Shown here piece by piece: positions 8,795-36,742 of a stretch of DNA of 64,000 nt (the first letter of the stretch is position 1; each line of letters starts with the position of its first letter). A program made the position numbers and the translations under genes. Below the pieces are notes generated by a model. It was given only the letters and a program-made list of their open reading frames with translations, was not told the DNA's origin and searched no databases. The stretch is from the NCBI GenBank assembly GCA_964452555.1, contig CAYVMI010000018.1:32329-96328 (forward strand). The letters are read 5' to 3'. This DNA comes from an uncultured Desulfobacterales bacterium (GTDB taxonomy: Bacteria > Desulfobacterota > Desulfobacteria > Desulfobacterales > B30-G6).

Positions 8795-10634
8795 TGTAGT
8801 ATTCCTCCATGGGAATGCTAATGATAAAATAGGTGCCTTTTCCGAGTTCACTTTTTACGTCGATCCTGCCACCATGCAGGTTGATAATCTCTGCAGCAAT
8901 GCATAATCCCAAGCCGGTACCTTGATTATCCTGAACCTTGGGATTGGACGAACGATAGAATTTATCGAAAATGTGATCCAGATCTTCCTGGGACATGCCG
9001 TAACCGGTATCGCTGATATCAAAAATGATATTGCCGCCCTCTTTCCGCAAGCCGAAGTCGATCACACCCTTTTGGGGCGTGTATTTAACCGCATTTCCGA
9101 GTATGTTGATAATGGCCCCCTTGAGCAGCTCTTTATCCCCCATAAAAACCGGGAAATTGTCAGGTGCATGACGCTCGATGGCGATCCCCTTTTTCTTGGC
9201 GCTGCCTTGCACCGAGACTAGACAATCCGTAAACAGCGAATCGGATTTAACAATATCTTTACTCAATGTAAGGCTGCCCATCTCGATTCTTGAGAGGTTC
9301 AGTAAATCTTTGATCAACCGCGATAGTCTCTTGGTTTCCTTGTTGATGGTATTAAAAAATTCCTTTTGGGTCTCAACATCCTCAATTTCACCTTCCATCA
9401 ACATTTCGCTGTAGGATTGAATGGTCGTCAGCGGTGTCATGATCTCATGCGACAAGTGGGCCACAAAAGCGATGGTATTTTTTTCCGCGTTTTTCTGGGT
9501 GGTAATATTGTTGAACGTAATTAAACTACCCGAAGAATGATTGTCTGCTCCGGTTAACGGCGTACAGGTGACTGAAAAGACATCTGTCTCCGAAAGCTCC
9601 GTAAGGGATAGCTCCACATGGTTTTGGGCCCGCAGCTGTTCTAGGCTGCCTTGTTGCGAAATGAAATGCACCAGAGCTGAATTGGAAAAAACTTCCTCAA
9701 AAGGCCGGTCGATCATATCGCGCCGAGTTTTGCCCAGATGCATCAACAGATAGTCATTGATGTGAACCACGCAGCCTTGAATATCGATAATCATGATGCC
9801 GTAATTAATGGTATTGAGAATATCGACGATCTGCCTTTTTTCATATTTGACGACACCCACCTGGGAGGCCAGACCCTTGTTATTTCCCTCGATTTTTTTG
9901 AGCTGTTTTTTCAATCGCACCAAAGCCACATGAAAATCTTTAATCATGCCATCAATGCTACCGATGCCGAAGGCCCGGGCCAACTCGTTTTTGGTCCGAC
10001 GCCGCGATGATTTGGGCACCAACTTGGAAACGGTCCCCCGGAGCGGCTTGACTGCCTGAAGGATGCCGTATTGGAATATGATGACGACGGCGGTAATAAA
10101 AAAGAAAAGCATCCCCAACAGGCTGATCCTTTCCTTGGTAAATAGGGATAGCGGCTCGAGCATCAGTCCGATATTAACGGTACCGGCCCGCTCCCCGTTT
10201 TCGAAAATCGGTTTTGAAAAGTCGAAAAGCCGGGCATCGTTATCTGTAAACTCAAAGGGTGAAAACACCAGCCCGGCCGCTTTTACCCTGCTTGAGTTTT
10301 GATCATTCTTGATGGCCAAATTGACCTGGGGCAGCCTAAAGGAAACCAATGTGGCCCCCGATCGATCGACAATGTGACAGTATGCCAGTCCTTCCTTGGT
10401 GGAATACTCCATCAGGGTTCTCACGAAGAAATCATGTTCCTTCTCAAAGGTTGCCATCGGTTGTAAGGCGATCAAGCTGACCAGGTGGTTGCCTTTGGTA
10501 TAGACTTCCTGGACCCGCTCCTTATTTTCGGTCCTGAGTTGAAAATTGGTTATAACAAATAGGCCCGAGAAAATGAGTAATATGAGAAAAAAATTGATGG
10601 CTTTTGTTTTCAGCACGTCGATGCTTCCCTTCAT
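8784..10634 (-). CDS. Membrane sensor histidine kinase (two TM segments, extracytoplasmic domain, PAS, HisKA, HATPase_c)
   Basis: H-box FVAHLSHEIMTPL, G-boxes DTGYGM and GTGLGL; start moved to MKGSIDV (ATG 10634, AAGGTGGTG upstream). Confidence 0.9.
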   Translation of the reverse strand: MKGSIDVLKTKAINFFLILLIFSGLFVITNFQLRTENKERVQEVYTKGNHLVSLIALQPMATFEKEHDFFVRTLMEYSTKEGLAYCHIVDRSGATLVSFRLPQVNLAIKNDQNSSRVKAAGLVFSPFEFTDNDARLFDFSKPIFENGERAGTVNIGLMLEPLSLFTKERISLLGMLFFFITAVVIIFQYGILQAVKPLRGTVSKLVPKSSRRRTKNELARAFGIGSIDGMIKDFHVALVRLKKQLKKIEGNNKGLASQVGVVKYEKRQIVDILNTINYGIMIIDIQGCVVHINDYLLMHLGKTRRDMIDRPFEEVFSNSALVHFISQQGSLEQLRAQNHVELSLTELSETDVFSVTCTPLTGADNHSSGSLITFNNITTQKNAEKNTIAFVAHLSHEIMTPLTTIQSYSEMLMEGEIEDVETQKEFFNTINKETKRLSRLIKDLLNLSRIEMGSLTLSKDIVKSDSLFTDCLVSVQGSAKKKGIAIERHAPDNFPVFMGDKELLKGAIINILGNAVKYTPQKGVIDFGLRKEGGNIIFDISDTGYGMSQEDLDHIFDKFYRSSNPKVQDNQGTGLGLCIAAEIINLHGGRIDVKSELGKGTYFIISIPMEEYYIDD

Positions 10635-14561: not shown

Positions 14562-15527
14562 TTAGAGCTCTTCGATCGCTTCCGTCAACTCCGGCAGAAA
14601 ATCGAGGATGTCGGCTTCGATGCCCACATCCGCCACCTGAAAAATAGGGGCCTTGGGATTTTTATTGATGGCCACGATAAAGGGATTGCCTTTGATCCCG
14701 CCCAAATGCTGGAAGGAGCCGCTGATCCCGCAGGCCAGGTAAACCTTGGGCTTGACCGTCTGGCCGCTCGTACCCACCTGCCGTGATTTTTCCAGCCATT
14801 TGGCGTCTACGATGGGACGCGAACAGCTCACTACGGCACCCATGGCCTTGGCCAGGTCTTCGGCGATTTCAATATTGTCTTCGTCTTCGATGCCGCGACC
14901 AATGGATACCAGCACATCCTCTTTGGTAATATCCACGTCACCTACTTCTGCCACCACGGTTTCAAGGTAGGTCCGCTTGGTGGACAAATCACCGGCTTCC
15001 CCGGATTTATCTACCACCTGGCCGGAAGCGCTTTTGCTTTCATCCGGTTGAAATGCCCCGGGCCTTACATTGACAACGGCTCCGGCGGCAATATCACAGG
15101 TTACATGGGTGCTGACCGCACCGCCATATTCCTGGCGCACGCATTTGAGAACCGAACCGTCCATGCCCTCAAATCCGACCACATCGGCCACAAAAGCCGA
15201 GTCCATTTTAATGGAAAGACCCGGTGCCAGATCCATACCAAAAGTATCGTGGGGCACCAAAAGCGTGCCATCGGCAGGCAATATGTTTAGTAAAACATTG
15301 CGGATGATTTCAGCATTGGGGTATGCCAGGGCCTCGTTTTCCACCTTCCAAACCTCGGCATAAGATGCCGCCAGATCATTGCAGAGCGCTTCGATCCCCG
15401 AACCCACGACTATGGCTGTGGGCGCTGCACCGGCATCGAGCTGTTTGGCCGCAGTTACCAGCTCCAGAGCTGAATCATCAGGGACCCCGTCCTTATACGT
15501 AATATAACTAAAAATCTGTCCTGACAT
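14562..15527 (-). CDS. etfA: Electron transfer flavoprotein alpha subunit
   Basis: 321 aa; C-terminal FAD-binding signature ...YLACGISGSFQHLGG... Confidence 0.95.
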   Translation of the reverse strand: MSGQIFSYITYKDGVPDDSALELVTAAKQLDAGAAPTAIVVGSGIEALCNDLAASYAEVWKVENEALAYPNAEIIRNVLLNILPADGTLLVPHDTFGMDLAPGLSIKMDSAFVADVVGFEGMDGSVLKCVRQEYGGAVSTHVTCDIAAGAVVNVRPGAFQPDESKSASGQVVDKSGEAGDLSTKRTYLETVVAEVGDVDITKEDVLVSIGRGIEDEDNIEIAEDLAKAMGAVVSCSRPIVDAKWLEKSRQVGTSGQTVKPKVYLACGISGSFQHLGGIKGNPFIVAINKNPKAPIFQVADVGIEADILDFLPELTEAIEEL

Positions 15528-16318
15528 TATTTGAGCCCTCCTTTGGCCTTGAGTAGTTCAATCAGTTTCTCAACGATCTCTTCGGTACTGCCTTCCAGCA
15601 TCTCAGCACCTTCTCCCAGCTCCGGAACGAAATAGTCCAACCGTTTGACACCGGCACCGGCGGCGCCGACGGCCTCGGCCGCCAGCCCCAGGTCTCCGGG
15701 ACCATGCACTGGGATATCAATGGATGCAACCTTGCGGATGCCGCGGATACCGACATAGCGCGGTTCGTTGATACCGGTCTGGATGGAAAGTACGCAAGGC
15801 AAAGTTATTTCACTCATTTCCTGGTTGCCGCCTTCGATTTCCCGCCCAATCTTAAGCTTTTTGTCATCAACGACCTCTATGGCGTTGACCAGCGATGCAT
15901 AGGGCACATCCAACATGGCCGCCAGCATGCCACCCACCTGACCGGCACCGTCGTCAGCCTGGGCTCCGGTCAAAATCAGGTCGTAATTACCTTTTTCCAC
16001 AGCGGCCTTCAGGATGGATGCAATGCCTTTACCATCGGAGTCTTCAAAGGCATCATCGGAAAGCAGCAGGCCGTTGTCGGCACCCATAGCCATTTCGCGC
16101 CGGACCACCTCTTCGGATTCCTCATCACCCACCGAAACCACGGTGACGCTGCCGCCTTTGTCATCCCGGATCTGGATGGCTTCCTCTACGGCATAATTGT
16201 CCCATTCATTGACCGAATATACCAGATCATCAGTTTCAATCCCGCTGCCGTCGCTGTTGACCTCGATTTCATTCTCTGCTGTATCCGGTACTCTTTTGAC
16301 ACATACCAAGATTTCCAT
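15527..16318 (-). CDS. etfB: Electron transfer flavoprotein beta subunit
   Basis: MEILVCVKRVPD... typical EtfB N-terminus; TAATG junction with etfA. Confidence 0.95.
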   Translation of the reverse strand: MEILVCVKRVPDTAENEIEVNSDGSGIETDDLVYSVNEWDNYAVEEAIQIRDDKGGSVTVVSVGDEESEEVVRREMAMGADNGLLLSDDAFEDSDGKGIASILKAAVEKGNYDLILTGAQADDGAGQVGGMLAAMLDVPYASLVNAIEVVDDKKLKIGREIEGGNQEMSEITLPCVLSIQTGINEPRYVGIRGIRKVASIDIPVHGPGDLGLAAEAVGAAGAGVKRLDYFVPELGEGAEMLEGSTEEIVEKLIELLKAKGGLK

Positions 16319-16556: not shown

Positions 16557-18659
16557 TTACTCAGCCGCATCTCGGGGGCTTGATTGATTGCTGCCAATAT
16601 GTTGGGCCACCAGTTCGACCAGATCAATGGCTTCCATTTTACCTTCCATGCCGGCAACCTTAATGGCATCTTCCATATTGACCAAACAGAATGGACAGGC
16701 CGTAACAATTACATCGGCACCGGCCTCGGCCGCCATTTCCACCCGTAAAACCCCCATGCGCTGTTCTTCCTCGGGCTCATAAAAAAGCATCAGCCCGCCA
16801 CCCCCACAGCAAAACGACCGATCACGACACTTAAGCATATCGACCCGTTTTAACCCCGGAATGGCATCCAATACTTCTCGGGGCTCGTCATAGAGACCGT
16901 TGTGCCGCCCCAGATAGCAGGGATCATGATAGGTGTAAACCTTGCCGTTGCTGCCGTTCGCCGCCAGCTTTAGATCGCCCGACTTTATCTTTTCCAGGAT
17001 AAGTTGGCTGATATGCTCAACCGGTGGCATCTCATCATAATCGTTTTTGAGCGCGTTGAAGGCATGCGGATCAGCCGTAATGATTTTTTCAACGCCACTG
17101 TTTAAAATCGCGTCTGTATTTTTGTCGCGCAAGTCTTGAAACAGCATTTCCTCGCCGAAACGGCGAACTTCATGACCGCTGTCCTTTTCAGCCTTGCCCA
17201 GGATGCCGAAATCCTCGCCGGCAGCGGACATCACCCTGGCGGTGGCGCGGCCGATATCCTGCATGCGGTCGTCATAAGAAGTGATGCTGTCCACAAAATA
17301 GAGGGTCGCTGCCGACTCTTTTTTACCCAGGACTTTAACCGGGCTATCTTCAGCCAGTTCCTTGGTCCAGTCCACACGTTTTTTCTCCATCTTGCCCCAG
17401 GGATTGCCGCGTTTTTCCAGCGCGCGCAGCGGTTTTTGCAGCGACTGCGGCACCGCGCCTTCATCCACCATCCCCCGGCGCAGATCCACAACCTTGTCGA
17501 TGTATTCGATCCCCAAAGGACATTCCTGCTCACAGGCACCACAGGTTGTGCAGGACCAGATCTCATCATCGTCATACACACTTTCCATCAGCGGCTTACT
17601 TTCCGGAGGAGCGGCTCCCAAAGGATAGATGGGATGGCTTTCAAACAACGCATCACGACCTTTGATGGAGATAAAGCGGGGAGACAAGGGTCGTTTGACC
17701 GCGTTGGCCGGACATTGGTCCGAGCAGCGGCCGCAATCGGCGCAGGAATAAAAATCCAGCATGTGCTTCCAGGTAAATTCGGTAAGATTTTTAACCCCAA
17801 ACGACTCCAGGTCGTCCAGTTGTTCGTCGCTGATACCATGTCGGACCGGCTTGACATTGCCCCGGTCAATCCGCATGAAAAACACATTAAATACAGACGT
17901 GATCACATGAAAATGCTTGCCCAGCGGCAAAAAACACATGAAGAAGAAGAAGGTGATATCATGAATGTAATACATGCCCAGATGGGTCGCCTGAAGACCG
18001 TTTATGGATGCCCCTCCCAGCAATAGCTTGAAAAACCAGGCTAAACTCAGGGGTGCGATCACCTCGGCATGCAGGCCTTTTTGGATCTGGGCGGCTGCAG
18101 TGCTGGCTTCAAACAAACCCTCCGAGATCATGAGCGTGGAAATCAGGCAGAGGACAAACACGGCTTCACCGGTATGGTCTTTACCATAGCGCTCCGGCAC
18201 GGCATAACGTGCCGGTTTGATGATACCCCTGCGTATCATGGCAATGATGCATGCCACCAGCACGGCGGTAGCGGCGTAATCTTTGAGCAAACTATAGACC
18301 ACCCCCAGGCCGCCCCCCAAACCGGGAAAAACAAAATCCGATGAGATGCCGATGATCACCAAGGAAGTGGACCGGATACCCAATATTAGAAAGCCGAAGA
18401 AAATGACAATGTGCAGAACGCCGGCCAGCATGTAGCGCGGCTGTCTCCATTGCAGCAGCCAAATTTTAATCAGCTTGCCGAACCTTTCACCAAAACGGTT
18501 CCAGCGCGGATCCGGTGCCGCCTTGAGCAAGGGAATAATGCGCATGGCCATGATATACGCAAAGACCACCACACCAATTAGGGGAATTAACCATGAAAAA
18601 GTTACTGTCGCAATCCCGATGAAAGATGCATCCGCCGGGGGAATCAACACAGTTTCCAT
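16557..18659 (-). CDS. Membrane-bound FeS oxidoreductase (N-terminal multi-TM domain + 2x[4Fe-4S] + two CCG domains; HdrD/DsrK/GlpC-like, candidate ETF:quinone oxidoreductase)
   Basis: 700 aa; CADCGRCSDQCP and CTTCGACEQECP ferredoxin motifs; FCCGGGG and VTACPFC CCG-domain motifs; sits next to etfBA and an acyl-CoA dehydrogenase. Confidence 0.85.
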   Translation of the reverse strand: METVLIPPADASFIGIATVTFSWLIPLIGVVVFAYIMAMRIIPLLKAAPDPRWNRFGERFGKLIKIWLLQWRQPRYMLAGVLHIVIFFGFLILGIRSTSLVIIGISSDFVFPGLGGGLGVVYSLLKDYAATAVLVACIIAMIRRGIIKPARYAVPERYGKDHTGEAVFVLCLISTLMISEGLFEASTAAAQIQKGLHAEVIAPLSLAWFFKLLLGGASINGLQATHLGMYYIHDITFFFFMCFLPLGKHFHVITSVFNVFFMRIDRGNVKPVRHGISDEQLDDLESFGVKNLTEFTWKHMLDFYSCADCGRCSDQCPANAVKRPLSPRFISIKGRDALFESHPIYPLGAAPPESKPLMESVYDDDEIWSCTTCGACEQECPLGIEYIDKVVDLRRGMVDEGAVPQSLQKPLRALEKRGNPWGKMEKKRVDWTKELAEDSPVKVLGKKESAATLYFVDSITSYDDRMQDIGRATARVMSAAGEDFGILGKAEKDSGHEVRRFGEEMLFQDLRDKNTDAILNSGVEKIITADPHAFNALKNDYDEMPPVEHISQLILEKIKSGDLKLAANGSNGKVYTYHDPCYLGRHNGLYDEPREVLDAIPGLKRVDMLKCRDRSFCCGGGGLMLFYEPEEEQRMGVLRVEMAAEAGADVIVTACPFCLVNMEDAIKVAGMEGKMEAIDLVELVAQHIGSNQSSPRDAAE

Positions 18660-19054: not shown

Positions 19055-20878
19055 TTATTTTCCGCCGAAACTATCCTCCCCAATCTGGGTAATGGCATCG
19101 CTGCTGTTTAGAATGGCGTTCATTTTTCCCATGCTGACGGGCAGTATCGACTGCATAAAAAATTGGGCGCTTTTAATTTGTCCTTCATAAAAAGCCCGGT
19201 CTTTTTTCTTGGCGCCGGCTTCGAGCAGTTCGGCTGCAATGGATGCCCGCCATAGAAGCATCCAGGCCATAACGGCATCGCCCATGACCTCCATAAAAGG
19301 ATAGGCATGGGCAAAGGCATCCATGACTTTATCCGACATGGCTGTTTTGCCCAAATGCATGGCGACCTCGCCCAGCTTGTTGACGGCTTCGGTAAGCTTG
19401 TCCGCCAGGCCGGCCAACGACGGCACGGCTTTGGCCCTGGCGATGGCAGCCTGGACCTCACCCAGCAGGTCCATTATCGGCCGGCCTTCGTTCATCCCCA
19501 ATTTACGGCCCAGCAGATCCATTGCCTGGATCCCGTTGGTGCCCTCGTAAATCATGGTAATGCGGCAGTCCCGGACGAGTTGCTCCTGAGGATACTCCTT
19601 AATATAACCATAGCCGCCGTAAACCTGCATACCCATGTTGCAGACATCATAGGCGCGATCAGAGACATAGCCCTTGGCAATCGGTATCAGAATATCTACG
19701 AGGCCCTTCAATTTTTCTATTTCAGCATCGTCATCGGAAATTTCGACGCGATCGTCGCACAAGGCCACATAATAGAGCAAACTGCGCATGCCTTCCACAT
19801 AAGCTTTCATGGTCAACAGTTGACGGCGCACATCGGGGTGTTGAATAATGGGGATGGATTTGGCTTCTTTTTCCCCGCTCATAACGGCTTGCAGGTTTTT
19901 TCCCTGTATTCGTTCCCGTGCATAGTTGATGGCATTGACATAGGACGCACTGGCGCAGCTCAGGCCCTGCATCCCCACCAGCAGGCGGGCTTCGTTCATC
20001 ATCAGAAACATGGCTCGCATGCCTTTATTTTCTTCTCCCAACAAAAACCCGCGGCAGCTGTCCTTGCCGCCCAATGTCAACGAACAGGTCGAGTTGCCGT
20101 GGATACCCATCTTTTCTTCAACGCCCGTGCAAACCACGTCGTTGGCATCGCCCAGGCTGCCGTCTGCATTGACCCATATTTTGGGGACCAGAAACAGTGA
20201 TATCCCTTTGGTTCCTTCGGGCGCGCCCTCGATTCGCGCCAGTACCGGGTGAATGATGTTTTCGGCCAAATCGTGCTCCCCGGAGCTGATAAAAATTTTG
20301 CTGCCGCTAATACTATAGGTACCATCATCATTCTTGACCGCAGTCGTAGTCAAAGCGCCCACATCCGATCCGGCCTCGGGCTCGGTCAGCAGCATGGTCC
20401 CGGTCCATTCACCGCTGTACATCTTCTTCAAAAACAGTTTTTTGAGCTCGTCGGTTCCAAAGGCTTCCACCAGTTTACCGGCGCCGTGTGTCAGTCCCGG
20501 ATACATCATAAAGGCATAGTTGGCGGCGTTGAAATAATCACTCGCCGCAAGTGCCACCGTACGGGGCATCCCCTGGCCACCCCATTCAGGATCTTCGGTC
20601 ATGGCCAGCCATTCCCCCTCTTTAAAAAGGTCCCAGGCCGAGTGAAACTCTTTGGGGACGGTGACCTGGCCGTTTTCAAAACGGGTGCCTTCCCTATCGC
20701 CGATTTCCCGCGTGGGCAGGATCTCCTTGATAGCCAGATTGCGCGCTTCGGATATAATCAAATCCACTGTTTTGCGGTTAAATTCCGCGAACGATTCATG
20801 TTTGCTGATATCGGCCACATCCAGCTGCTCATGCAGCACGAAATCCACATCTCTTCGATCTGCGAGTTGTTGTGCCAT
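19055..20878 (-). CDS. Long acyl-CoA dehydrogenase (with C-terminal extension domain)
   Basis: 607 aa; ...YEGTNGIQAMDLLGRK... ACAD signature. Confidence 0.95.
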   Translation of the reverse strand: MAQQLADRRDVDFVLHEQLDVADISKHESFAEFNRKTVDLIISEARNLAIKEILPTREIGDREGTRFENGQVTVPKEFHSAWDLFKEGEWLAMTEDPEWGGQGMPRTVALAASDYFNAANYAFMMYPGLTHGAGKLVEAFGTDELKKLFLKKMYSGEWTGTMLLTEPEAGSDVGALTTTAVKNDDGTYSISGSKIFISSGEHDLAENIIHPVLARIEGAPEGTKGISLFLVPKIWVNADGSLGDANDVVCTGVEEKMGIHGNSTCSLTLGGKDSCRGFLLGEENKGMRAMFLMMNEARLLVGMQGLSCASASYVNAINYARERIQGKNLQAVMSGEKEAKSIPIIQHPDVRRQLLTMKAYVEGMRSLLYYVALCDDRVEISDDDAEIEKLKGLVDILIPIAKGYVSDRAYDVCNMGMQVYGGYGYIKEYPQEQLVRDCRITMIYEGTNGIQAMDLLGRKLGMNEGRPIMDLLGEVQAAIARAKAVPSLAGLADKLTEAVNKLGEVAMHLGKTAMSDKVMDAFAHAYPFMEVMGDAVMAWMLLWRASIAAELLEAGAKKKDRAFYEGQIKSAQFFMQSILPVSMGKMNAILNSSDAITQIGEDSFGGK

Positions 20879-24734: not shown

Positions 24735-24771
24735 TGCAAACGTTTGCGCTGCTGGGATGCAAACGTTTGCG
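24735..24771. promoter_or_regulatory. Two identical 14-mers TGCAAACGTTTGCG (12-bp perfect palindrome core), 23 bp apart; candidate LacI/PurR-type operators
   Basis: Cores at 24736..24747 and 24759..24770; extra half sites gtttgcg at 24719..24725 and ttgcaaac at 24780..24787. Confidence 0.6.
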
Positions 24772-24819
24772 GTCCCGAATTGCAAACCGAGAACAGGACT
24801 ACAACCAGGAGAATTAATT

Positions 24820-27800
24820 ATGCCAAAAGACGTTATCGGAGCGACGATGGTGGTCGGCGGTGGAATCGCAGGGATGCAATCAGCCCTGGATTTGGCCGAA
24901 TCCGGCTATTATGTATATCTGGTGGAAAAGTCACCGGCAATCGGCGGACTCATGTCCCAGCTGGATAAGACCTTTCCCACCAATGACTGTGCCATGTGAG
25001 TCATTTCACCCAAACTGGTCGAGGTCGGCCGGCATCTCAACATTGAACTGCTCACCAATACGGAACTCGTCAATCTGGAAGGAGAACCGGGCAATTTTTC
25101 GGCAAAGGTTCATCAGACACCCCGCTACATCGATCTGGATAAATGTACCAGCTGCGGTGAATGTGCCAAAGTTTGCCCCATTACCCGCCCCAATGAATAT
25201 GACCAGGGCCTCTCAACACGTCAGGCGGCCTTCAAAAAATACGCCCAGGCCATACCGGGTGCTTTTGGAATTGAAAAACGGGGCACAGCCCCGTGTAAGG
25301 CCACCTGCCCTGCGCATGTCAGTATCCAGGGCTACATCGCCTTGATCAACCAGGGCAAATATCAGGAAGCGCTGGAACTATTCAAAAAAGACCACCCTTT
25401 TCCGGGAATTTGCGGCCGCGTCTGTCATCACCCCTGTGAAGAAATCTGTACGCGCAATGATGTAGACCAGCCCCTGGCCATACGGGAACTGCATCGCTTT
25501 TTGGCTGATTATGAAAGACAACAGGGTGAATTCTATGTCCCCGAAGTCACCGAAACCCGTGAAGAAAAAGTAGCCGTCATCGGCTCCGGCCCGGCTGGTT
25601 TAGCAGCCGCTTATAGCCTGGCCCTTCAGGGTTATCAGGTCACGGTGTTTGAAAAATTGCCGGTGGCCGGTGGTATGATGTCCGTGGGCATTCCCGAATA
25701 TCGACTGCCCAGAGATATCATTGCCGAAGAAATTCGCGTGATTGAAAAAATGGGCGTGACCATCCAGACCGGCGTCACCTTTGGTGAAGACATTACCCTG
25801 GACAGTCTCAAACAGGATGGCTTTTCAGCTGTATTTATGGCCATCGGCCTGCATGGCGGCCGTAATCTGGGTGTTGAAAATGAAGATGCCGAAGGCGTTC
25901 TCCAGGGGGTTGATTTCCTGCGTGACAGTGCCATGGGCAAAGATGTGCCCATCGGTGAAGACGTACTGGTTGTCGGCGGCGGCAATGTGGCCATCGACGT
26001 GGCCCTCACAGCTAAACGCAAGGGCTCCAAAAACGTCACCCTGATCTGCCTGGAAGCCCGGGACGAAATGCCGGCCTGGCAGCACGAAATCGAAGAAGCC
26101 CTCGAAGGCGACATTGAGATTGTCAACAGCTTTGGCCCTAAGTCATTCTTCATTGACAAAAGCAACAAGGTCTCGGGGATTGAATTTAAAACCTGTACGG
26201 CCGTATTTGACGATGAGGGACGCTTTAATCCCCGGTATGACGACAATGTGTGTCAGCCCTTCTTTGGCGACACCGTCATTATCGCCATTGGTCAGAGCGC
26301 CCAACTCGAGCACATCGAGTCCCAGGGAATTCCGGTCACCCCCAGGGGCGGCCTGGAAGCCGATCCGCTTACGTTGCAAACCAAACTGGACTGGGTCTTT
26401 GCCGGCGGCGATGCCTTCTACGGTCCCAAATCGGTTGTGGACGCCGTTGCTTGCGGCAAGGAAGCCGCCGAGTCCATTCATCGTTTCATAAACGGCCAGG
26501 ATCTGGCCGCTGATCGGGAGCAAAACTGGGAATTTGATAAACCCGATATTGAAAACGAACCACACATGGATCGCACCACGGTACGCTGCCTGGATCCCGA
26601 AGCGCGTGAGTGTAACTTTTTGGAAGTCTCTTTTGGCTATAATGAAGATGAAGCCAAAACCGAAGCCCAGCGCTGCCTGGAATGCGGTATCTGTTCGGAA
26701 TGTTACCAGTGCGTCGAGGCCTGCCTGGCCGAAGCCGTGGATCATGACCAGAAACCCATGGACCGTGAGATCAAGGTGGGTTCCGTGGTCCTGTCTTCGG
26801 GGACGGATCTGTATGATCCCAGCGACCTGGCCCAGTTCTATCATTACGGCATCAATCCCAACGTCATGACCAGCCTCGAATTTGAACGCATCTTGAGCGC
26901 CTCCGGCCCGACCATGGGGCATCTGGTGCGGCCGTCCGACGAAAAAGAACCCCAGAAAATTGCCTGGCTCCAGTGCGTTGGTTCCCGCGACACCAACCGG
27001 TGCGGCAACGGCTACTGCAGCAGTGTCTGCTGTATGTACACCATCAAGGATGCCATGATCGCCAAGGAGCATTCCGGCGGCGATCTCGACTGCGCCGTGT
27101 TTTACATGGACATCCGTTCCTTTGGCAAAGATTACGAACAGTATTACGACCGCGCCCGCGACAAAGAAGGTGTTCGTTTTGTAAAAGCTCGCGTGCACAC
27201 CATCGCCGATGATCCCGAGACCCGCGATTTGATCATCTCTTTTGCGGACGAATCCGGGCAGATGCAGACCGAACGTTTCGACATGTTGGTTCTGTCCGTG
27301 GGCCTGCAGGTTTCTCAGGCGTCGGTCGATCTGGCCAAAACACTCGATATCGATCTGAACCATTACAACTTCGTGGACACCGATCCGTTTGCTCCGGTGG
27401 CCACCTCCCGTCCGGGTGTTTATACCTGCGGCATCTTTCAGGGCCCCAAGGACATCCCCTCTTCGGTTACCGAGGCCAGTGCGGCGGCCAGTGCCGCCGG
27501 CGTGGAAGTGGCCGCGGCCCGGGGAACGGCCATTAAGAAAATCACCCTGCCCGCAGAATTGGATGTGAGTGAGGCGGATCCGCGCATCGGTGTGTTTGTC
27601 TGCAACTGCGGCATCAATATCGGTGGCGTGGTGGATGTGCCTGCGGTGCAGGAATATGCCGGCACCCTCCCCGGTGTGGTTTATACCGACAACAACCTCT
27701 TCACCTGCAGCCAGGATACCCAGGAAATTATCAAGGAAAAAATCAAGGAAGAAAAATTGAACCGGGTGGTGGTTGCGTCCTGCAGTCCCAAAACCCACGC

Positions 27801-29253
27801 CCCCATGTTCATGGAAACCCTTGAAGCCTGCGGCCTGAACAAGTACCTGTTTGAAATGGCCAATATCCGCAACCAAAACTCATGGGTGCATGCCAATAAT
27901 CCGGATATCGCCACCCAAAAGGCCAAAGACCTGGTTCGCATGGCAGTGGCGCGGTCGGAACGATTGAGACCCCTCAAGGAAAAAATAATTGGGGTCAACA
28001 AGCGCGCCCTGATAATTGGCGGCGGAATCGCCGGCATGAATGCGGCTCTGCATATCAGTAAGCAAGGTATGCCGGTGACGCTGCTGGAAAAGAACAAAGA
28101 GCTGGGCGGCATGGCTAATAAACTTCACCATACCATCGAGGGAGCCGACATCCAGGCCTATATCAAGGAATTGATCGAAAAAGTCAGCGCACGTGAGGAA
28201 ATCGAAATCCTGACCGATGCGGTGGTCCTGACTTTTGACGGATTCCAGGGCAACTTTGCCACCGAAGTGGGTGTGGGGCCCATGCGTGAACCCCAGGTTA
28301 TCGAACATGGCGTCATTCTGGTAGCCACAGGGGCCAATGAATATCAGCCCACGGAATTTCTGTATGGCCAGGACGACCGTGTCAAGACCCAGGTGGAGCT
28401 GGCCGATGCCCTGCACCAGGGCTCCACCGGAGATCTGGATTGCGTGGCCATGATCCAATGCGTAGGATCGCGCAACGAAGATAATCCCAACTGCTCTCGC
28501 ATCTGCTGCCAATCGGCGGTTAAAAATGCCCTGACCATCAAGAAAGCCAACCCCGAAACACAGGTTTTCGTACTCTATCGGGATATGCGCACCTACGGCC
28601 TTTTGGAGGATTACTATACCGAAGCGCGCAAACAAGGCGTTATCTTCGTACGCTTTGACAAGACCGAACCTCCGGTTGTTGAGTCTGCTGACGAGGGTCT
28701 GCTGATCACGGTAAAGGATCATGTATTGCAGCAGCCGATCCAGATCCGTGCCGACCTTCTGGCCCTGAGCGCCGGGGTTGCGGCCGCGGACACCGAGGAT
28801 ATGAGCCGCATCATGAAGCTCAACCGCAATCCCGAGGGCTTTTTTATTGAAGCCCACGTCAAACTCAGACCGGTGGATATGGGCAGCGACGGCACCTTCC
28901 TGTGCGGTACCGCCCATGCCCCCAAGCTAATTACCGAAACCATCGCCCAGGCTCAGGCGGCGGCTTCACGCGCCATGACTTTCCTGGCCAAGGATGAAAT
29001 CAAGCTTTCGGCCATAACAGCCCAGGTGGATGTGGAACACTGTGTGAAATGTCTCACCTGCGTGCGGTCGTGTCCCTTTGAGGTACCCAAGTTTGATATC
29101 GAAAAAGGCGAAATCGTAATCGACGAGGCCATGTGCCACGGCTGCGGTGTTTGCGCCTCGGTTTGTCCCAGACAGACCATCAGTTTAAATTTTTATGAAG
29201 ACGACCAGATTATCTGTAAAATAGATGCTCTGCTTGCAGGAGGCGTTTCATGA
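24820..29253 (+). CDS. Giant HdrA-like flavoprotein (HdrL-type: two HdrA modules + inserted GltD/NfnB-like NAD(P)H module + ferredoxin domains), selenoprotein with UGA-Sec at 24997..24999
   Basis: Track ORFs 24757..24999 and 25342..29253 are in the same frame with no other stop between them. Sequence reads ...[18 protein letters not shown]... where HdrA has CxxC. ATG 24820 has AGGAGA upstream. [19 protein letters not shown] and [10 protein letters not shown] dinucleotide folds; CVGSRD/CVGSRN HdrA motifs. Confidence 0.85.
25021..25038 (+). promoter_or_regulatory. Weak candidate SECIS hairpin for the HdrL UGA
   Basis: gaggu(c)-ggccg-(g)caucuc, 21 nt after UGA; imperfect. Confidence 0.3.
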
Positions 29254-29672
29254 CCGACTTTGAACCGACCATTATCGCATTTTGCTGTGATTACTGAGGA
29301 TATTCGGCCGCGGACCTGGCAGGTTCCATGCGACTCGATTATCCGGCAAACATCAAGATTATCCGTGTGCCCTGCACCGGAAAAGTAGACGTAATGTATC
29401 TCCTCAGATCGATCCAAAAAGGCGCCGACGGCGTGTATGTGGTCGGCTGTCTGGAGGGGACTTGTCATTATAAGGAAGGCAACTTCAGGGCCCGCGAGCG
29501 GGTCAATTATGTGCGCTCGCTCCTGGAGGAAATAGGCCTTGAAGCTGATAGGGTTAGAATGTATAATCTCTCTTCTGGCGAAGGGCCGACGTTTGCGGCT
29601 TATGCCAGGGAAATGACGGAAAATATCAAGGCGCTGGGTCCCAATCCCATCAAGGAAAAGGACCAAGCCTAA
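29250..29672 (+). CDS. mvhD: MvhD/VhuD-like protein, selenoprotein with UGA-Sec at 29295..29297
   Basis: ATG 29250 overlaps the HdrL stop (ATGA). [25 protein letters not shown] matches the FCCNWC motif with Sec at the third Cys. Same frame as track ORF 29328..29672. Confidence 0.85.
29312..29327 (+). promoter_or_regulatory. Candidate SECIS hairpin for the mvhD UGA
   Basis: ggacc-uggca-gg(u)ucc with bulged U, 14 nt after UGA. Confidence 0.45.
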
Positions 29673-29687
29673 AACGGAGGAACAATT

Positions 29688-31007
29688 ATGGCTCAAGAAG
29701 CAATCAAGTTGGGCGGGAAAAAGAAAAGCATTTTCCTGGACAAAGTTAAAGAGCTTCTCCCCGAAGGGGGAAACCTCAATCTTTGTCTGACATGTGGAGC
29801 ATGCTCTTCCGGATGCCCGGCCACAGGTATCGGCGGAATGGATCCCCGAAAATTCCTACGCATGGCCGCACTGGGAATGGATGAAGAAATCATGAAATCG
29901 GAATGGGTATGGTGGTGCAGCATGTGTCAGCGCTGCATTTATGTGTGCCCCATGAAAATCGACATACCCCAGCTGGTTTTTAATGCCCGCGGATCATGGC
30001 CCCGGGAAGAACGACCCAAGGGAATTGTCGGTTCCTGTGACATGGCCCTGCGCAACGACACCTGCAGCGCCATGGGTGCCACCGAAGAGGACTTTCAGTT
30101 CGTGGTGGAAGATGTGCTCGAGGAATATCAGGAAAGTCAACCCGAATTCGCCGACATGCTAGCCCCCGTCAACAAAGAGGGTGCTCATTATTTCCTGAAC
30201 CAGAATTCACGTGAACCGGTTACCGAACCGGACGAAATGGTGCCGCTCTGGAAAATTCTGCACCTGGCGGGTGCCGACTGGACCTATGGAACCAAGGGTT
30301 GGGCCGCCGAGAACTATTGCATGTTCATGGCCGATACCAAAAACTGGGAACACATTGTGCGGGTAAAAGCCAAAGCCGTCGACGATCTAGGCTGCAAGGT
30401 CTGGCTCAACACCGAGTGAGGGCACGAACTTTTCGCAGTCCGGGCCGGACTGAAAAAATTCAATATCGAACATAATTTCGAAATCCAGAGTATCATTCAG
30501 CTTTATGCCCAGTGGGTCCGCGAGGGCAAACTCAAGGTCAACTCCGATTGGAACAAGGAACGCCAGATCAAGTTCACCGTCCAGGACCCCTGTCAATTGG
30601 TGCGTAAAACCTATGGCGACCCGGTTGCCGATGACCTGCGATACGTGGTCAAGGCGGTTGGGGGGGAAGAAAACTTCGTAGAAATGTATCCCAACCGCTC
30701 CAACAACTATTGTTGCGGCGGCGGCGGCGGATTCCTGCAAAGCGGATATCCGGAAGAACGGCGGGCCTATGGCAAGTGCAAGGCCGACCAGATCCTGGGC
30801 ACAGGGGCCGCTTACTGCATTACCCCGTGCCATAACTGCCACGCCCAGGTTCACGATCTATCAGAGCAGCGCGACCATCCGTGGGAAACCCTGCATCTGT
30901 GGACATTGATCTGTCTGTCTCTGGGTATACTGGGCCCCAATGAAAGGGCTTACCTGGGGGATGATCTCAAAGATGTCGACGTATTTCATCCTGAATCGGA
31001 GATGTAG
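29688..31007 (+). CDS. HdrD-like FeS protein (2x[4Fe-4S] + two CCG domains), selenoprotein with UGA-Sec at 30417..30419
   Basis: Track ORFs 29688..30419 and 30597..31007 share a frame, and the 177 nt between them has no stop. CLTCGACSSGCP and CSMCQRCIYVCP motifs, then ...KVWLNTE-U-GHELF..., then DPCQ...NYCCGGGGG...TPCHNCH. Confidence 0.8.
30431..30458 (+). promoter_or_regulatory. Candidate SECIS hairpin for the HdrD-like UGA
   Basis: cagtccg-ggc-cggactg perfect 7-bp stem (30436..30452), extended by tttt/aaaa; starts 17 nt after UGA. Confidence 0.6.
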
Positions 31008-31015
31008 GAGGAAAC

Positions 31016-31687
31016 ATGATAGTCGCCAAAAGGAAACCTTTTGATGAAATAAAAGAGCTGATCAAGGACCACAAAAAGGTCCTCATCGCCGGCTGCGGCA
31101 CCTGTGTGGCTGTCTGCCTGGCTGGCGGTGAAAAAGAAGTCGATGTCCTCAATGCAGAGCTCGACATGGCTCGGAAGCTGGACAACGATCCCATCAAGAC
31201 CGGCACCATCACTGTGGAAAGACAGTGCGATGTGGAATACCTGGAACCTTTTGATCCCATCGCCAAGGATTATGATGCCATCTTATCCATGGCCTGCGGG
31301 GTTGGTATTCAGTTTTTGGCCGAACGCTTTCCCGGAATTCCGGTCTATCCGGCGGTAGACACCACCGGCATGTCGGCCAACCTGGCTGTGGGCTGGTACG
31401 AAGAACGCTGCCGCTCCTGCGGTGAATGTGTTCTGGGAATGACCGGCGGCATATGCCCCGTCACCATGTGTGCCAAGGGACTTTACAACGGTCCCTGTGG
31501 TGGTACCAATGAGGGGAATTGTGAAATCAGCGACGATCAACCCTGTGCCTGGTTCCGAATCTACGAACGCCTGGCCACCCAAGATCGTCTGGACTGTATT
31601 CTGAATATCAAGGAGCCCGTGGGCTGGGACGACCAGGTACCGCGAACTTTGATTCAACCAGGATATAAAAAGCCAGAACAAGATTAA
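31016..31687 (+). CDS. metV: MetV-type methylenetetrahydrofolate reductase C-terminal-domain protein (Cys-rich small subunit)
   Basis: 223 aa; LIAGCGTCVAVC ... CRSCGECVL ... CPVTMCAKGLYNGPCGG; immediately upstream of metF. Confidence 0.8.
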   Translation: MIVAKRKPFDEIKELIKDHKKVLIAGCGTCVAVCLAGGEKEVDVLNAELDMARKLDNDPIKTGTITVERQCDVEYLEPFDPIAKDYDAILSMACGVGIQFLAERFPGIPVYPAVDTTGMSANLAVGWYEERCRSCGECVLGMTGGICPVTMCAKGLYNGPCGGTNEGNCEISDDQPCAWFRIYERLATQDRLDCILNIKEPVGWDDQVPRTLIQPGYKKPEQD

Positions 31688-31735
31688 CAGGTCTCATGGA
31701 GTGAATGACCTCATATACGACATAAGGTGATGCAT

Positions 31736-32680
31736 ATGAGCACAGAGGGAAACGGTTTTAAGTCAGATAGCAACTTGGAAAAGATTTTGCGGGCCGGTCA
31801 TTTCGCCTTTACCGGCGAACTCGGTCCCCCCCGAGGATCCGATGCGGTTGAGGTTCGTGAAAAAGCCAAGCATTTAAAGGGTATGGTAGATGCGGTTAAC
31901 ATCACCGACAACCAGACCGCCATGGTGCGTATGTCCAGCTGGGCCGCCAGTCTTTTGATCATGCAGGAAGGTCTCGAACCCAATTATCAGATGGTCTGCC
32001 GTGACCGCAATCGCTTGGCCATGCAGTCCGATATCTTAGGCGCTTACGCCCACGGCGTTCGCAACATGCTGTGTCTTTCCGGTGATCATCAAAAATTCGG
32101 TGATCATCCCAACGCCAAAGGCGTTTTCGATATTGATTCGATCCAACTCATCAGTATGGTCAAAAAAATGCGGGATGAGAGTAAATTTTTGGGCGGGGCC
32201 GAGTTGGAAGGCGCCCCTAAAATGTTTATTGGCGCAGCCGCAAACCCCTTTGCCGATCCGTTTGAATGGCGTGTTCACCGTTTGGCTAAAAAAATTCAAG
32301 CCGGTGTTGATTTTATCCAGACCCAGTGTATTTACAACATGGATAAATTTCGCAAGTTCATCAAACAGGCCAACGACATGGGACTAACCGAAAAGGTGTA
32401 CATCCTGGCCGGTGTCACCCCCATGAAGAGTGTCGGTATGGCCAAGTACATGAAGAGCAAGGTGCCCGGTATGGACGTCCCCGATGACATTATCAAGCGC
32501 CTCCAAGGCGCGGAAAAAGGTAAAGTTGCGGCCGAGGGTATCAAGATCGCCTGCGAGCAGATCGAAGAGTTTAAAGAAATGCAAGGCGTTGCCGGCGTCC
32601 ATCTAATGGCAATTGAATGGGAACATAAAGTCCCGGAAATCGCAGAACAGGCTAAGGTGCTGCCTCGCCCAGAGGTATAA
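31736..32680 (+). CDS. metF: Methylenetetrahydrofolate reductase
   Basis: ...FTGELGPPRG...VNITDNQ...LCLSGDH... MTHFR motifs; ATG 31736 preferred (AAGGTG 6 nt upstream) over track start 31727. Confidence 0.9.
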   Translation: MSTEGNGFKSDSNLEKILRAGHFAFTGELGPPRGSDAVEVREKAKHLKGMVDAVNITDNQTAMVRMSSWAASLLIMQEGLEPNYQMVCRDRNRLAMQSDILGAYAHGVRNMLCLSGDHQKFGDHPNAKGVFDIDSIQLISMVKKMRDESKFLGGAELEGAPKMFIGAAANPFADPFEWRVHRLAKKIQAGVDFIQTQCIYNMDKFRKFIKQANDMGLTEKVYILAGVTPMKSVGMAKYMKSKVPGMDVPDDIIKRLQGAEKGKVAAEGIKIACEQIEEFKEMQGVAGVHLMAIEWEHKVPEIAEQAKVLPRPEV

Positions 32681-33627: not shown

Positions 33628-36399
33628 CTACGCCGCTTTCGAAATTCGGACCGCACAAACCTTGAGTTCGGGGATTCCGGAAACCGGATCCAGAGCAGCG
33701 TTGGTTAGTTTGTTGGCAGCTGCCTGGGCATAATGAAAAGGAATGAAAATCGTGCCCGGCACTGCCTGGTCAGAAACTTTAACGGCGGCCTCAAGATCTC
33801 CACGACGAGATTCTACTTTTACCATGGCGCCATCTTCCAGTTCATAGTTACGCGCGTCCTCAGACGATATTTCCACGTAACAAGCCGGAGCGCGCTCATT
33901 CAAGCCATCTGATTTCATGGTCATGGTGCCGGTATGGTAGTGATACAGGATCCGGCCGGTGGTCAGGGACAGCGGATAATCCGCGTCGATCTTTTCAGCG
34001 GGACCGTTGTAATCAATGGGATGCATGAGGCCTTTGCCGCGGGTGAACTGCTCTCTATGTAGAATCGGTGTCCCGGGGTGGTCTTTGCTGGGACAAGGCC
34101 AGTGCAGCCCCACCGCTTCGATGCGCTCATAATCGATCCCGGCATATGACGGGGTAACCGCGGCCAGTTCCTGCATAATGTCCTGGCTGGTATCGTAGGA
34201 CATGGCCACCCCCATACGCGTGGCTATCTCAGCCGTAATTTCCCAATCATCCTTGGCCTGGCCGGGAGCATCCACGGCTTTGCGTATACGCTGAACGCGC
34301 CGTTCACTGTTGGTGAAGGTACCTTCCTTTTCGGCAAAACATTTGGAGGGCAGTACCACATCCGCCAGTTGAGCCGTCTCGGTCATGAAAATATCCTGCA
34401 CCACCAAAAAGTCGAGATTTGTGAAACATTTTTCGGCATGATTCAAATCCGCATCCGACACCATCGGATTTTCACCCAGGATATACAAACCTTTGAATTC
34501 GCCGTCATGCGCTTTGGGCAGCATTTTGGTAATCGTCAATCCAGGCTCCGTGGAAATCCCGCTCACGCCCCAGGCGGTCTCCATTTTTTTGGCGGCTTCT
34601 AAGTCGGTCACCGGCTGGTAGCCGGAAAATACATTGGGAAGTCCGCCCATGTCGCAGGCGCCCTGGACGTTGTTTTGACCCCGTAAAGGATTGACACCGC
34701 CCCCTTCCACACCCATGTGACCGCAAAGCATGGCCAGATTGGCCAATGATTTCACATTATCGGTGCCATTGGTATGCTGGGTAATTCCCATGCAATAACA
34801 GATGCTGCCGGCCTTGGCCTGGGCATACGCTCTGGCAGCCTCGGCCAACTGCGCCTGGGGAATGCCCGTAATCTCTTCCACATAAGCCGGTGTATACTCG
34901 GCCACTGTTTTTCTGAGATCTTCGAATCCCTCGGTCCGTTTCTCAACAAAGTCCTGGTCATACAGGGCTTCATTGATGATGACATTCATCATGCCGTTGA
35001 TCCAGGCCACATCGGTACCCAGATTTTGACGCAACCAATAATGGGCAAATGAAGCCATCTTGATAAAACGCGGATCCACGACGATAAGCTTGGCACCATT
35101 GAAGCTGACCGCCCGTTTGATAAACGATGAAAGCACCGGATGGTTTTCGGTGGTATTGGATCCGGTAACCAAGATTACATCGGCCTTCTCGATTTCGCCA
35201 ATGGTATTTGTCATGGCGCCACTTCCGAATGCTGCAGCCAGACCGGCTACGGTGGAGGAATGTCAGAGCCGGGCGCAATGATCGATATTGTTGGTTTTTA
35301 ATACTCCCCGGGCAAATTTGTTGGCCAAGTAATTTTCTTCATTGGAAATCCGAGCCGAGGTGAGCACCCCCAGGCTGTCTGAGCCGTGGGATTCTTTGAT
35401 TTCACTGAATCGCTTGGCAACCAAATCCAGGGCTTCATCCCAGGTAGCCTTGCGAAAGCTGCCGTTCTCTTTGATCATGGGGTCGGTCAGTCGCTCGGGT
35501 GAATGAATAAAGTCGTATCCGAAGCGGCCTTTGACGCAGAGGCTGCCGTAGTTGGGTGCGGCCCCCTCCACACCGCTGACCTTGACCACCCGGTTGTCTT
35601 TGACATGCAGATAAAGCTGGCAGCCCACACCGCAATAGGAGCAGGTTGTACGGACCTTCTCGGTTTCCCATTGGCGTACCTGATAGCGGGCATCCTTTTC
35701 CACCAGCGCTCCCACAGGGCAAACCTGCACACATTCGCCACAAAATACACAATCCGAATCCTTGAGGGCCTTGTCCTCTTTACCCGCAATAATTTTGGAC
35801 TGGTTACCGCTATACCCGAACTCAATGGCATTGTTCACCTGGACTTCGTTACACGCCTGAACGCAGCGGCCGCATTTGATACAACGAGAGAAATCCCGGA
35901 TGATAAACGGATTGGCCGTTTCCATTGGATAAGGTGCCTGCGCATCTGCGAAGCGTTTCGGTTCCACCTGGTAACGGTAAGCCAAGTCCTGCAGACGGCA
36001 GTCCCCCCAGACCGGGCACAATTCCGAGCTGTCATCGTACTGCTGAACGTTCATCTGAAACTGGGACCAGTCATCGCTGCTGGTGCCCCGGATGGCGCAG
36101 TTGTGGTTCCCGGTGGACAGCATGAGCTGAATGATGGCCCGGCGCGCGGAAACGACGCGCGCTGATTCCGTCTGGACAATCATACCAGCCTCTGCCAAGG
36201 TGTCACAGGACGGTAGCAGGTCCTCTACACCCTCGACTTCAACCACACATATACGGCAGTTGCCTGTGGGCGCAGCGCCTTTCAGATAGCAAAGGGTGGG
36301 AATATCGATGCTGTTTCGTCTGGCCACGGCCAAGATGGTTTCATCTTTTTCAAAAGCCAAAGAGTTTCCGTTGATGATGATGTTCGGCTGATCACTCAT
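33628..36399 (-). CDS. fdhA: Formate dehydrogenase catalytic subunit with NuoG-like N-terminal [2Fe-2S]/[4Fe-4S] domains; selenoprotein with UGA-Sec at 35263..35265
   Basis: Track ORFs 35263..36420 and 33628..35214 are in frame. Junction reads [29 protein letters not shown], the canonical FdhA Sec site. Start either ATG 36420 or ATG 36399 (GAGGAAG 7 nt upstream). Confidence 0.9.
35234..35250 (-). promoter_or_regulatory. SECIS hairpin of fdhA
   Basis: On the mRNA: GUAGCC-GGUCU-GGCUGC, 12 nt after UGA. The loop GGUCU resembles my recollection of the E. coli fdhF SECIS apex (UGCA-GGUCU-GCA). Confidence 0.75.
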
Positions 36400-36742
36400 A
36401 TACGCTTCCTCTACATTCATTGGTTCCTAGATTCGGGTTATTAACTGAAATTTTTCAGCTGATACAACTCAGGATATGTATCCAAAAGCAATGCTTTTGT
36501 CAATGATGCGCGATACAAAACAAACGGTTGACGTTTTTGTATATCAAGAATTTTATCTTTGTCAAAAATATGTCTTCCTCGCGCGGGAATAAATGTAATG
36601 TCATACCGACAATACTTAACGTTTTCGGACATTTAACTAAAGTTTTATCATAAATTTGCCGATACCATTACGACGGGTATTTGTGGAATAGTCATTGCGT
36701 CCTGTTGCAGGTTGCGTTATAATAATTGTTGTCTCTGATTCG

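Follow-up and report, generated by a model that had tools for sequence, protein, structure and literature searches.

The listing of Fe-S oxidoreductase (GlpC, COG0247)-like proteins among the bacterial selenoprotein families goes back to 2005-2006 (Zhang et al. 2006; Zhang et al. 2007). In Deltaproteobacteria their genes cluster with those of the HdrA and FrhD/MvhD selenoproteins (Zhang et al.), the family was counted in the delta-1 and delta-4 symbionts of Olavius (Zhang et al. 2007), and the table of a 2026 AEM review gives it one selenocysteine (Sec) in the motif UGH, with WP_174406253.1 as the reference protein. In the genome paper of Desulfobacterium autotrophicum HRM2, a Sec-containing hdrD4 is annotated and HdrL is described as a Sec-containing fusion of HdrA and glutamate synthase, after which comes an MvhD that also contains Sec (Strittmatter et al. 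2009). We analysed a window of 64,000 nucleotides from an uncultured Desulfobacterales bacterium (contig CAYVMI010000018.1, positions 32,329 to 96,328 of the forward strand), in which a gene at positions 29688-31007 of the plus strand very probably encodes a selenoprotein of this kind, an HdrD-like (HdrC plus HdrB fusion) Fe-S oxidoreductase whose UGA codon at 30417-30419 would be read as Sec at residue 244.

Two other groups of described proteins bear on this gene. The T/GECGH motif was described by Barbosa et al. (2024), and a single-noncubane-cluster class has been defined in which only one CCG motif (CXnCCGXnCXXC) is complete and a conserved T/GECGH stands in for the second (PMC10861901). 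In a 2026 preprint on the structure of DsrMKJOP solved by cryo-electron microscopy, the Cys329 of DsrK is non-ligating, carries persulfide density and lies between Cys114 of DsrC and the single noncubane cluster, to which it is proposed to relay sulfur, and His331 is the likely proton relay. The methylene-tetrahydrofolate reductase of Moorella thermoacetica is described as a MetFV-HdrABC-MvhD complex (Mock et al. 2014, reviewed by Buckel and Thauer 2018).

An earlier note on this DNA had proposed that two open reading frames (ORFs), 29688-30419 and 30597-31007, belong to one selenoprotein gene, with open and plausibly coding sequence between them and a junction KVWLNTE-[TGA]-GHELF. Translation showed that both ORFs share one frame of 440 codons, of which the TGA at 30417-30419 is the sole interruption, and that the intervening 177 nt (30420-30596) form an open stretch. 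The coding sequence of 439 codons, which we assigned from the sequence, its translation and its homologues, begins at the ATG at 29688, 8 nt downstream of a Shine-Dalgarno sequence GGAGG, and has 243 codons upstream and 195 codons downstream of the TGA. The junction reads KVWLNTE-[TGA]-GHELFAVRAGL, as the note had it, and the 59 codons at 30420-30596, far from being unconserved, were found by tblastn to be conserved in frame.

The read-through product was compared with a large protein collection, which gave 2427 homologues, and the best 120 of these were aligned. They are single proteins of about 435 amino acids, 56-70% identical to the query, and all 120 carry a cysteine at the column of the TGA, as do 119 of 119 sequences in a second alignment. 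Within the motif N-T-E-C-G-H, E243, C244 and H246 are invariant among the 120 homologues and G245 is present in 119. Cys-containing homologues, of the kind that the earlier note had recommended looking for, thus occupy the top of the list, and the arrangement that it had set against its own proposal, two separate genes with a real stop, was not seen, the homologues without the TGA being all fused with a Cys at this column.

We also scanned one genome per species with the first 243 residues of the protein and kept the 80 nearest loci, a set outside which D. autotrophicum falls. These loci are 80-93% identical to the first 243 residues, come mostly from metagenome-assembled genomes (MAGs) of Desulfobacterales and Desulfosarcinaceae, and include Desulfosarcina variabilis (L019), Desulfospira joergensenii and the delta-4 symbiont of Olavius algarvensis (L050). 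A TGA occupies the matching column in all 80, and in a Logan contig that encodes an identical protein. The related loci have 188-196 open codons past the TGA wherever the contig reaches far enough, and the C-terminal tblastn matches restart at the codon right after the TGA in all of them, with 67-88% identity.

No full-length Sec form was found among the top matches of the search in the protein collection. The TGA-containing members seen in public protein sets are fragments of about 243 and about 190 amino acids. The Sec family is routinely split by gene callers and is systematically mis-annotated, and because of this splitting the best full-length match was only 70% identical to the query despite genomic relatives at 80-93%. 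The error is widespread, the nearest relatives being recorded as two fragments.

Relationships between the Sec and Cys forms were read from an identity matrix and clustering, since a midpoint-rooted neighbour-joining tree did not separate the two forms cleanly. The median identity among Sec forms was 80% and the highest identity between a Sec and a Cys form was 79.5%. None of the Sec forms was nearest to a Cys form, while six Cys forms were nearest to a Sec form.

The earlier note had also recorded a perfect 7-bp hairpin, cagtccg-ggc-cggactg, at 30436-30452, 17 nt downstream of the TGA. The hairpin is as stated, the figure of 17 nt meaning that the stem begins at the 17th base after a gap of 16 nt. 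Its fold, its covariation and its absence from Cys homologues suggest that this 7-bp stem with a 3-nt loop GGC is the core of a bacterial selenocysteine insertion sequence (SECIS). Across 68 distinct TGA-anchored sequences the stem was 98.3% paired. The pair 26-30 was G-C in 60 of them, U-A in seven and A-U in one, and the pair 21-35 was A-U, G-U, G-C, C-G or U-A. Double-change cells in the stem numbered 12 against 1.3 expected, a value reached by none of 500 shuffles, pairing dropped to 7-45% when the 3' arm was slid by one to three columns, and the first base of the loop (G27) was invariant. As a control, the stem was missing at the same position in both Cys-encoding homologues for which DNA was at hand. 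One of these encodes the near-identical peptide AFRAGLE from GCC TTT CGA GCA GGA TTG, yet lacks the stem, which is present in the TGA-containing copy located 1.2 kb downstream in the same locus. The covariation and the absence from Cys forms indicate that the hairpin is selected at the RNA level. An outer stem at 30426-30461 predicted by RNAfold was dropped, as it is mostly A-U and its pair of columns 15-41 is non-complementary in most relatives.

Both forms were also observed in tandem on one metagenomic contig (L083), where a Cys form of 439 amino acids (P0001, 6001-7320) stands directly before a TGA form of the same protein (7822-9141). The downstream hairpin is present only in the TGA copy of this pair.

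The HdrD-like identity given in the earlier note agreed with Pfam and with profile matches to the Protein Data Bank (PDB), which point to a fusion of an HdrC-like and an HdrB-like part. The HdrC-like ferredoxin domain comprises residues 30-92 (29775-29963) and matched Fer4_17, Fer4_8 and the HdrC chains of 8rvv, 5odc and 7bkb, with E-values for HdrC entries down to 9e-17. It contains two CxxCxxCxxxC motifs (Cys33/36/39/43 and Cys77/80/83/87), all eight cysteines of which are invariant, and would be expected to bind two cubane [4Fe-4S] clusters. The C-terminal CCG domain, residues 297-388 (30576-30851), is intact (PF02754, 43.6 bits; HdrB 5odc_B, E = 1.4e-6). Its ligands Cys302, 342, 343, 381 and 384 are invariant in both the Sec and the Cys forms, and this domain is the predicted site of a single noncubane [4Fe-4S] cluster.

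The region between these two domains was assigned by profile and by model alignment to HdrB as a degenerate N-terminal CCG-like domain (about residues 168-249, 30189-30434). It keeps only Cys211 and Sec244 at former cluster-ligand positions, three of the five ligand columns being occupied in the Sec forms by N173, by M/L212 and mostly by E247. Pfam found no CCG match in the isolated segment and called nothing between the ferredoxin and CCG domains, and a phmmer search of residues 105-439 against the PDB gave noise and a weak HdrB match, so that a family profile was needed to detect HdrB. An AlphaFold2 model of the Cys homologue P0001, 71% identical to the window protein, reached a pLDDT of 86 and a pTM of 0.87. 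Foldseek with this model returned EtfD of Mycobacterium smegmatis (9ojn) first, with E = 2e-10 over 455 aligned columns, and HdrB chains with a target TM of 0.61-0.67 over 289-311 columns, which corresponds to the whole two-domain HdrB fold. Both halves of the model follow the order beta-alpha-beta-alpha-beta with a Cys at the helix N-terminus (E238-241 then C244, and E376-379 then C381). As the model has the two-domain HdrB fold, the region between the ferredoxin and CCG domains corresponds to a degenerate first CCG domain.

The residue replaced by Sec was located by aligning the family profile to Methanothermobacter HdrB (8rvv_B), in which lgckvylnTEC-GH-atyav stands against mgadim--TEC-NGC-fgslf. 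By this alignment, Sec takes the place of the first of the two cysteines in the CxxC with which HdrB's N-terminal CCG domain ends, and the other one has no counterpart. The earlier note had arrived by eye at the same placement, using VIVTACPFCLV of the ORF 16557-18659 on the minus strand for comparison; that sequence is present there and is the CxxC of a C-terminal CCG domain.

The numbering of EtfD agrees with this placement. In EtfD (9ojn), the linear [3Fe-4S] cluster D1 is ligated by C503, C538, C581 and C584, and the noncubane cluster D2 by C637, C672, C673, C709, C712 and His583. Equivalences were taken from consistent numbering offsets of 327-337 residues, by which the cysteines of D2 map to Cys302, 342, 343, 381 and 384 of the window protein. 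By the same offsets C538 maps to Cys211, C581 to Sec244 and His583 to His246, while C503 maps to N173 and C584 to E/S/A247, both being lost in the window family.

The T-E-U-G-H motif at residues 242-246 (30411-30425) appears to be the counterpart of T/GECGH in DsrK, HmcF and TmcB. We examined this motif in 42 more distant full-length relatives obtained by an exhaustive profile search. In domain 1 of these relatives, residues other than Cys fill the columns of the first Cys and of the 'CC', the last Cys is missing throughout, and [T/G/S]-E-C-G-H is kept in most of them while the other ligand columns of the first CCG domain decay. One of them (P0196) is a DsrK by the NCBIfam cut-off (451 against 400 bits), and its GECGH aligned on the Sec column. 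By analogy with the DsrK preprint, Sec244 is best read as the selenium version of the catalytic, non-ligating Cys of DsrK-, HmcF- and TmcB-type enzymes. The earlier note had placed Sec at a position that helps to bind the noncubane cluster or the substrate; the HdrB column was right, but a simple role as cluster ligand did not hold up, given the degenerate first CCG domain and the non-ligating Cys of DsrK.

The TGA at the matching column in all related loci, the Cys in all of the best homologues, the covarying hairpin and the catalogued UGH motif together uphold the selenoprotein claim, and we put the probability that 29688-31007 is one gene with the UGA decoded as Sec at roughly 95%. The fuller statement, to which the non-ligating role that we infer for residue 244 is added, is also held with high confidence, a little below that figure.

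Several observations weigh against this reading. No tRNA-Sec was found in the window with ARAGORN, and no sel gene was found among 25 window ORFs scanned against Pfam; the organism nevertheless decodes Sec, to judge by the TGA codons at catalogued Sec sites of its hdrL, mvhD and fdhA genes. The hairpin alone has a folding energy of -13.6 kcal/mol with z = -1.5, which is not significant, and an Rfam scan of the whole window gave no family at threshold and none matching the hairpin, whose significance comes from its conservation across genomes and not from thermodynamics. The residue-level match to HdrB lies in the low-confidence part of a weak profile match (E of about 1e-5), and an hhalign comparison of the N-terminal pseudo-CCG with the C-terminal CCG domain gave an agreeing register with P = 0.16. 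About 45 of the TGA loci, over half, have neighbours other than hdrA, mvhD and metF. The invariance of Cys211 in the subfamily, shared by Cys117, makes a residual metal site possible.

If the TGA were a true stop, an HdrC-like protein of 243 amino acids and a separately translated HdrB-like protein would be made. HdrC and HdrB are indeed separate subunits in methanogens, public gene predictions split the gene, a Logan assembly includes a called gene with exactly this 243-amino-acid product, and many representatives of 50%-identity clusters stop at profile position 242 or start at about 247. However, no in-frame ATG, GTG or TTG occurs within 59 codons after the TGA, and the first possible restart, the TTG at 30597, has no Shine-Dalgarno sequence and lies inside DPCQ-L-VRK, so that a start there would delete the ligand Cys302. 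A split would moreover cut a folded domain four residues after a beta-strand, leave the in-frame conservation of the 59 intervening codons and the fusion of all homologues without the TGA against it, and deprive a conserved, covarying hairpin of a role, which makes two proteins very improbable. Closer still to negligible is a pseudogene, or a TGA created by a sequencing or assembly error: TGC or TGT is one base away from TGA and only one sequence represents the window, but 80 genomes or MAGs, each assembled independently, share this TGA with the Logan read assembly, the sequence on either side of it is under purifying selection, and downstream synonymous sites are conserved where the hairpin forms.

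A further alternative accepts the Sec and differs on what it does: Sec244, with Cys211 and others, would ligate a second, reduced or unusual Fe-S centre in the first CCG domain, much as Cys581 ligates D1 in EtfD, the selenium tuning the cluster instead of being a nucleophile. Sec244 and Cys211 correspond to Cys581 and Cys538, which are among the four D1 ligands of EtfD, and to HB2 ligands of HdrB, and EtfD is the top structural match. Against this, the remaining ligand columns are N173, M/L212 and E/S/A247, no CCG domain is recognised there by Pfam, and the wider family keeps only ECGH, its Cys211 column being A, G or L. In DsrK the equivalent Cys is non-ligating and every other HB2 ligand is replaced, and those EtfD homologues that lack the D1 cysteines are presumed to function without the D1 cluster. 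We consider a ligand role of Sec244 improbable, though less so than the two alternatives to its decoding.

With Sec244 as a non-ligating residue, the following mechanism can be proposed. Electrons would leave a flavin/NAD(P)H module (HdrL and MvhD) and reach the noncubane cluster by way of the two cubane ones, the degenerate first CCG domain no longer binding a cluster. Sec244 would act as the nucleophile on a disulfide or sulfane-sulfur substrate and form an Se-S adduct beside the noncubane cluster, which would reduce the adduct by one-electron steps. His246 could serve as proton relay or as cluster partner, and Cys211, which is invariant in the window subfamily and absent from DsrK-type relatives, may be a resolving thiol at the place of the lost cluster. 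The signals for Sec decoding, the arrangement of domains, the equivalence of the columns and the make-up of the operon were shown directly, whereas we infer that Sec244 is a nucleophile, what its substrate is and which way electrons flow.

The gene order hdrL(Sec)-mvhD(Sec)-hdrD(Sec)-metV-metF runs in one orientation. The metV (31016-31687) and metF (31727-32680) genes, both on the plus strand, encode subunits of methylene-tetrahydrofolate reductase by their matches to PF12225 (111.8 bits) and PF02219 (140.3 bits), respectively. Since hdrD stands between hdrL-mvhD and metVF, a predicted HdrL-MvhD-HdrD-MetVF complex probably couples the redox chemistry of methyl/methylene-tetrahydrofolate with thiol chemistry and NAD(P)/ferredoxin. 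Sulfate reducers commonly run the Wood-Ljungdahl pathway oxidatively. A more specific proposal, which we consider possible but rather doubtful, is that the UGH selenoprotein, as the selenium version of the DsrK-type Cys, would be here the thiol- or sulfane-sulfur-reducing or -oxidising subunit of this complex. The oxidation of methyl-tetrahydrofolate in completely oxidising sulfate reducers would then be coupled to the reduction of a protein disulfide or trisulfide (e.g. DsrC) via an Se-S intermediate at the single noncubane cluster, with Cys211 as the resolving residue.

The same gene order was found in 16 related loci, and a rearranged linkage of hdrA, mvhD and metF in about 17 more. In the roughly 45 loci with other neighbours, the TGA gene is accompanied by an acyl-CoA dehydrogenase and a TetR regulator, by a formate dehydrogenase or by no obvious partner, so that the HdrD-like protein is a reusable module and its link with MetF is not general. 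A 605-amino-acid acyl-CoA dehydrogenase, a TetR-like regulator and an AMP-ligase were observed upstream of the TGA gene in L003 and L046, and a Sec-type formate dehydrogenase downstream of it in L003 and L008. No gene for a membrane cytochrome (DsrM, HmcE, TmcC) is adjacent to hdrD in the window, where its neighbours are hdrL, mvhD, metV and metF.

The earlier note had counted this gene as the third consecutive one for a selenoprotein, and the two upstream genes fit that count. The HdrL-type gene (24820 or 24757 to 29253, plus strand; about 1480 amino acids), which joins HdrA to a GltD-like NAD(P)H/FAD domain, has a TGA at 24997-24999 in DCAM-U-VISPK, the CxxU site catalogued for HdrA. The MvhD/FlpD gene (29250-29672, plus strand; PF02662, 130 bits) has a TGA at 29295-29297 in FCCDY-U-GY. 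Folding of these two genes gave, downstream of each TGA, a hairpin whose loop is rich in G, and the ATG of mvhD overlaps the stop of hdrL by 4 nt (ATGA, 29250-29253), which suggests translational coupling of the two. On the minus strand, a fourth selenoprotein gene of the window, 33628-36420, is predicted to encode the alpha subunit of a formate dehydrogenase with a TGA at 35263-35265 (NIDHCARL-U-HSSTVAGL), and this gene is split by gene finders into the ORFs 35263-36420 and 33628-35214.

Two other genes of the window were noted. The ORF 16557-18659 on the minus strand encodes a 700-amino-acid EtfD/HdrF-like membrane Fe-S paralogue that has K-D-S-G-H at the motif, where the His is kept and a Ser replaces Cys or Sec. 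Its neighbours on the same strand are etfB (15527-16318), etfA (14562-15527) and an acyl-CoA dehydrogenase gene (19055-20878), and the D-S-G-H sequence would fit an EtfD-like protein that does nothing but transfer electrons. Some Deltaproteobacteria have MsrA as a selenoprotein; the fused MsrA-MsrB (PMSR and SelR) methionine sulfoxide reductase gene of the window (52883-53896, minus strand) is an uninterrupted ORF.

Comparison of the window protein with the GlpC-like selenoproteins showed the same HdrD/GlpC-type architecture (COG0247), a single Sec in U-G-H, a clustering with hdrA and mvhD, and matches of GlpC models to the N-terminal domain; the delta-4 symbiont of Olavius, in which that family was counted, is also among the TGA loci (L050). 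By this architecture and motif we assign it to the known GlpC-like UGH family. The earlier note's statement that GlpC-like Fe-S oxidoreductase selenoproteins are listed for deltaproteobacteria agrees with the literature, and since both the family and the position of its Sec were already known, the finding is a correct rediscovery. The operons described for the family have the order glpC-hdrA-frhD-frhG-frhA and are hydrogenase-linked, whereas here hdrL, mvhD and metVF are present without hydrogenase subunits. HdrD4 of D. autotrophicum, so far as its published description extends, is likewise a soluble HdrC and HdrB fusion selenoprotein, and HdrL-MvhD pairs occur there as they do here.

Our literature search did not find the combination of selenocysteine with CCG and noncubane chemistry, and the papers on the DsrK structure and motif found in it do not include selenocysteine. 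As no link between the UGH motif and the DsrK Cys was found in the literature, the connection of the UGH Sec motif to the DsrK-type catalytic Cys may be unpublished.

Like DsrK, HmcF and TmcB, the window protein has two cubane motifs, one CCG domain that is intact and another that has degenerated and keeps only the T/GECGH-type motif, and with one complete CCG motif and TE-Sec-GH it falls within the broad single-noncubane-cluster class. Its best NCBIfam matches were HmcF (1e-46), TmcB (1e-43) and DsrK (4e-30), but its scores were far below the equivalog cut-offs (DsrK NF045796, 104.9 against 400 bits; HmcF NF045711, 159.6 against 750 bits; TmcB NF045724, 149.1 against 735 bits), so by its predicted sequence it is related to these proteins and a member of none of them. 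It differs from them by the lack of a membrane partner gene (dsrM, hmcE or tmcC) alongside, by the extra invariant Cys211 and by the Sec that replaces Cys at the catalytic position, and from DsrK also by its last CCG ligand, a Cys where many DsrK have an Asp. The repeated placement of Sec at the Cys of T/GECGH agrees with the proposal that Cys329 of DsrK is nucleophilic, redox-active and non-ligating, and supports it independently, and pairs of Sec and Cys forms, sometimes in tandem in one genome, offer a system for probing the mechanism of DsrK.

The fold of the whole soluble module is shared with HdrB/HdrC of methanogen HdrABC (5ODC, 8RVV) and with EtfD (9OJN). HdrB, in which both CCG domains are complete, carries two noncubane clusters, whereas the window protein has no second cluster motif; assignment to HdrB or HdrD proper, with two full five-Cys CCG motifs, was rejected because its first domain has only Cys211 and Sec244. 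EtfD, unlike the window protein, includes a membrane domain, which spans the membrane and holds haem, and four Cys ligate its linear [3Fe-4S] cluster; the His583 that completes its noncubane coordination corresponds to His246. With the Moorella complex, as far as its published outline goes, the locus shares the clustering of hdr, mvhD, metV and metF genes and the coupling of MetFV to an HdrA module that bifurcates electrons by means of flavin. It differs from that outline in that HdrB and HdrC are fused, one noncubane site is present, HdrA has the HdrL form, three of the proteins are selenoproteins and the host is a sulfate reducer. The position of hdrD between hdrL-mvhD and metVF provides an entry point to the second substrate of MetFV-Hdr-type reductases in sulfate reducers.

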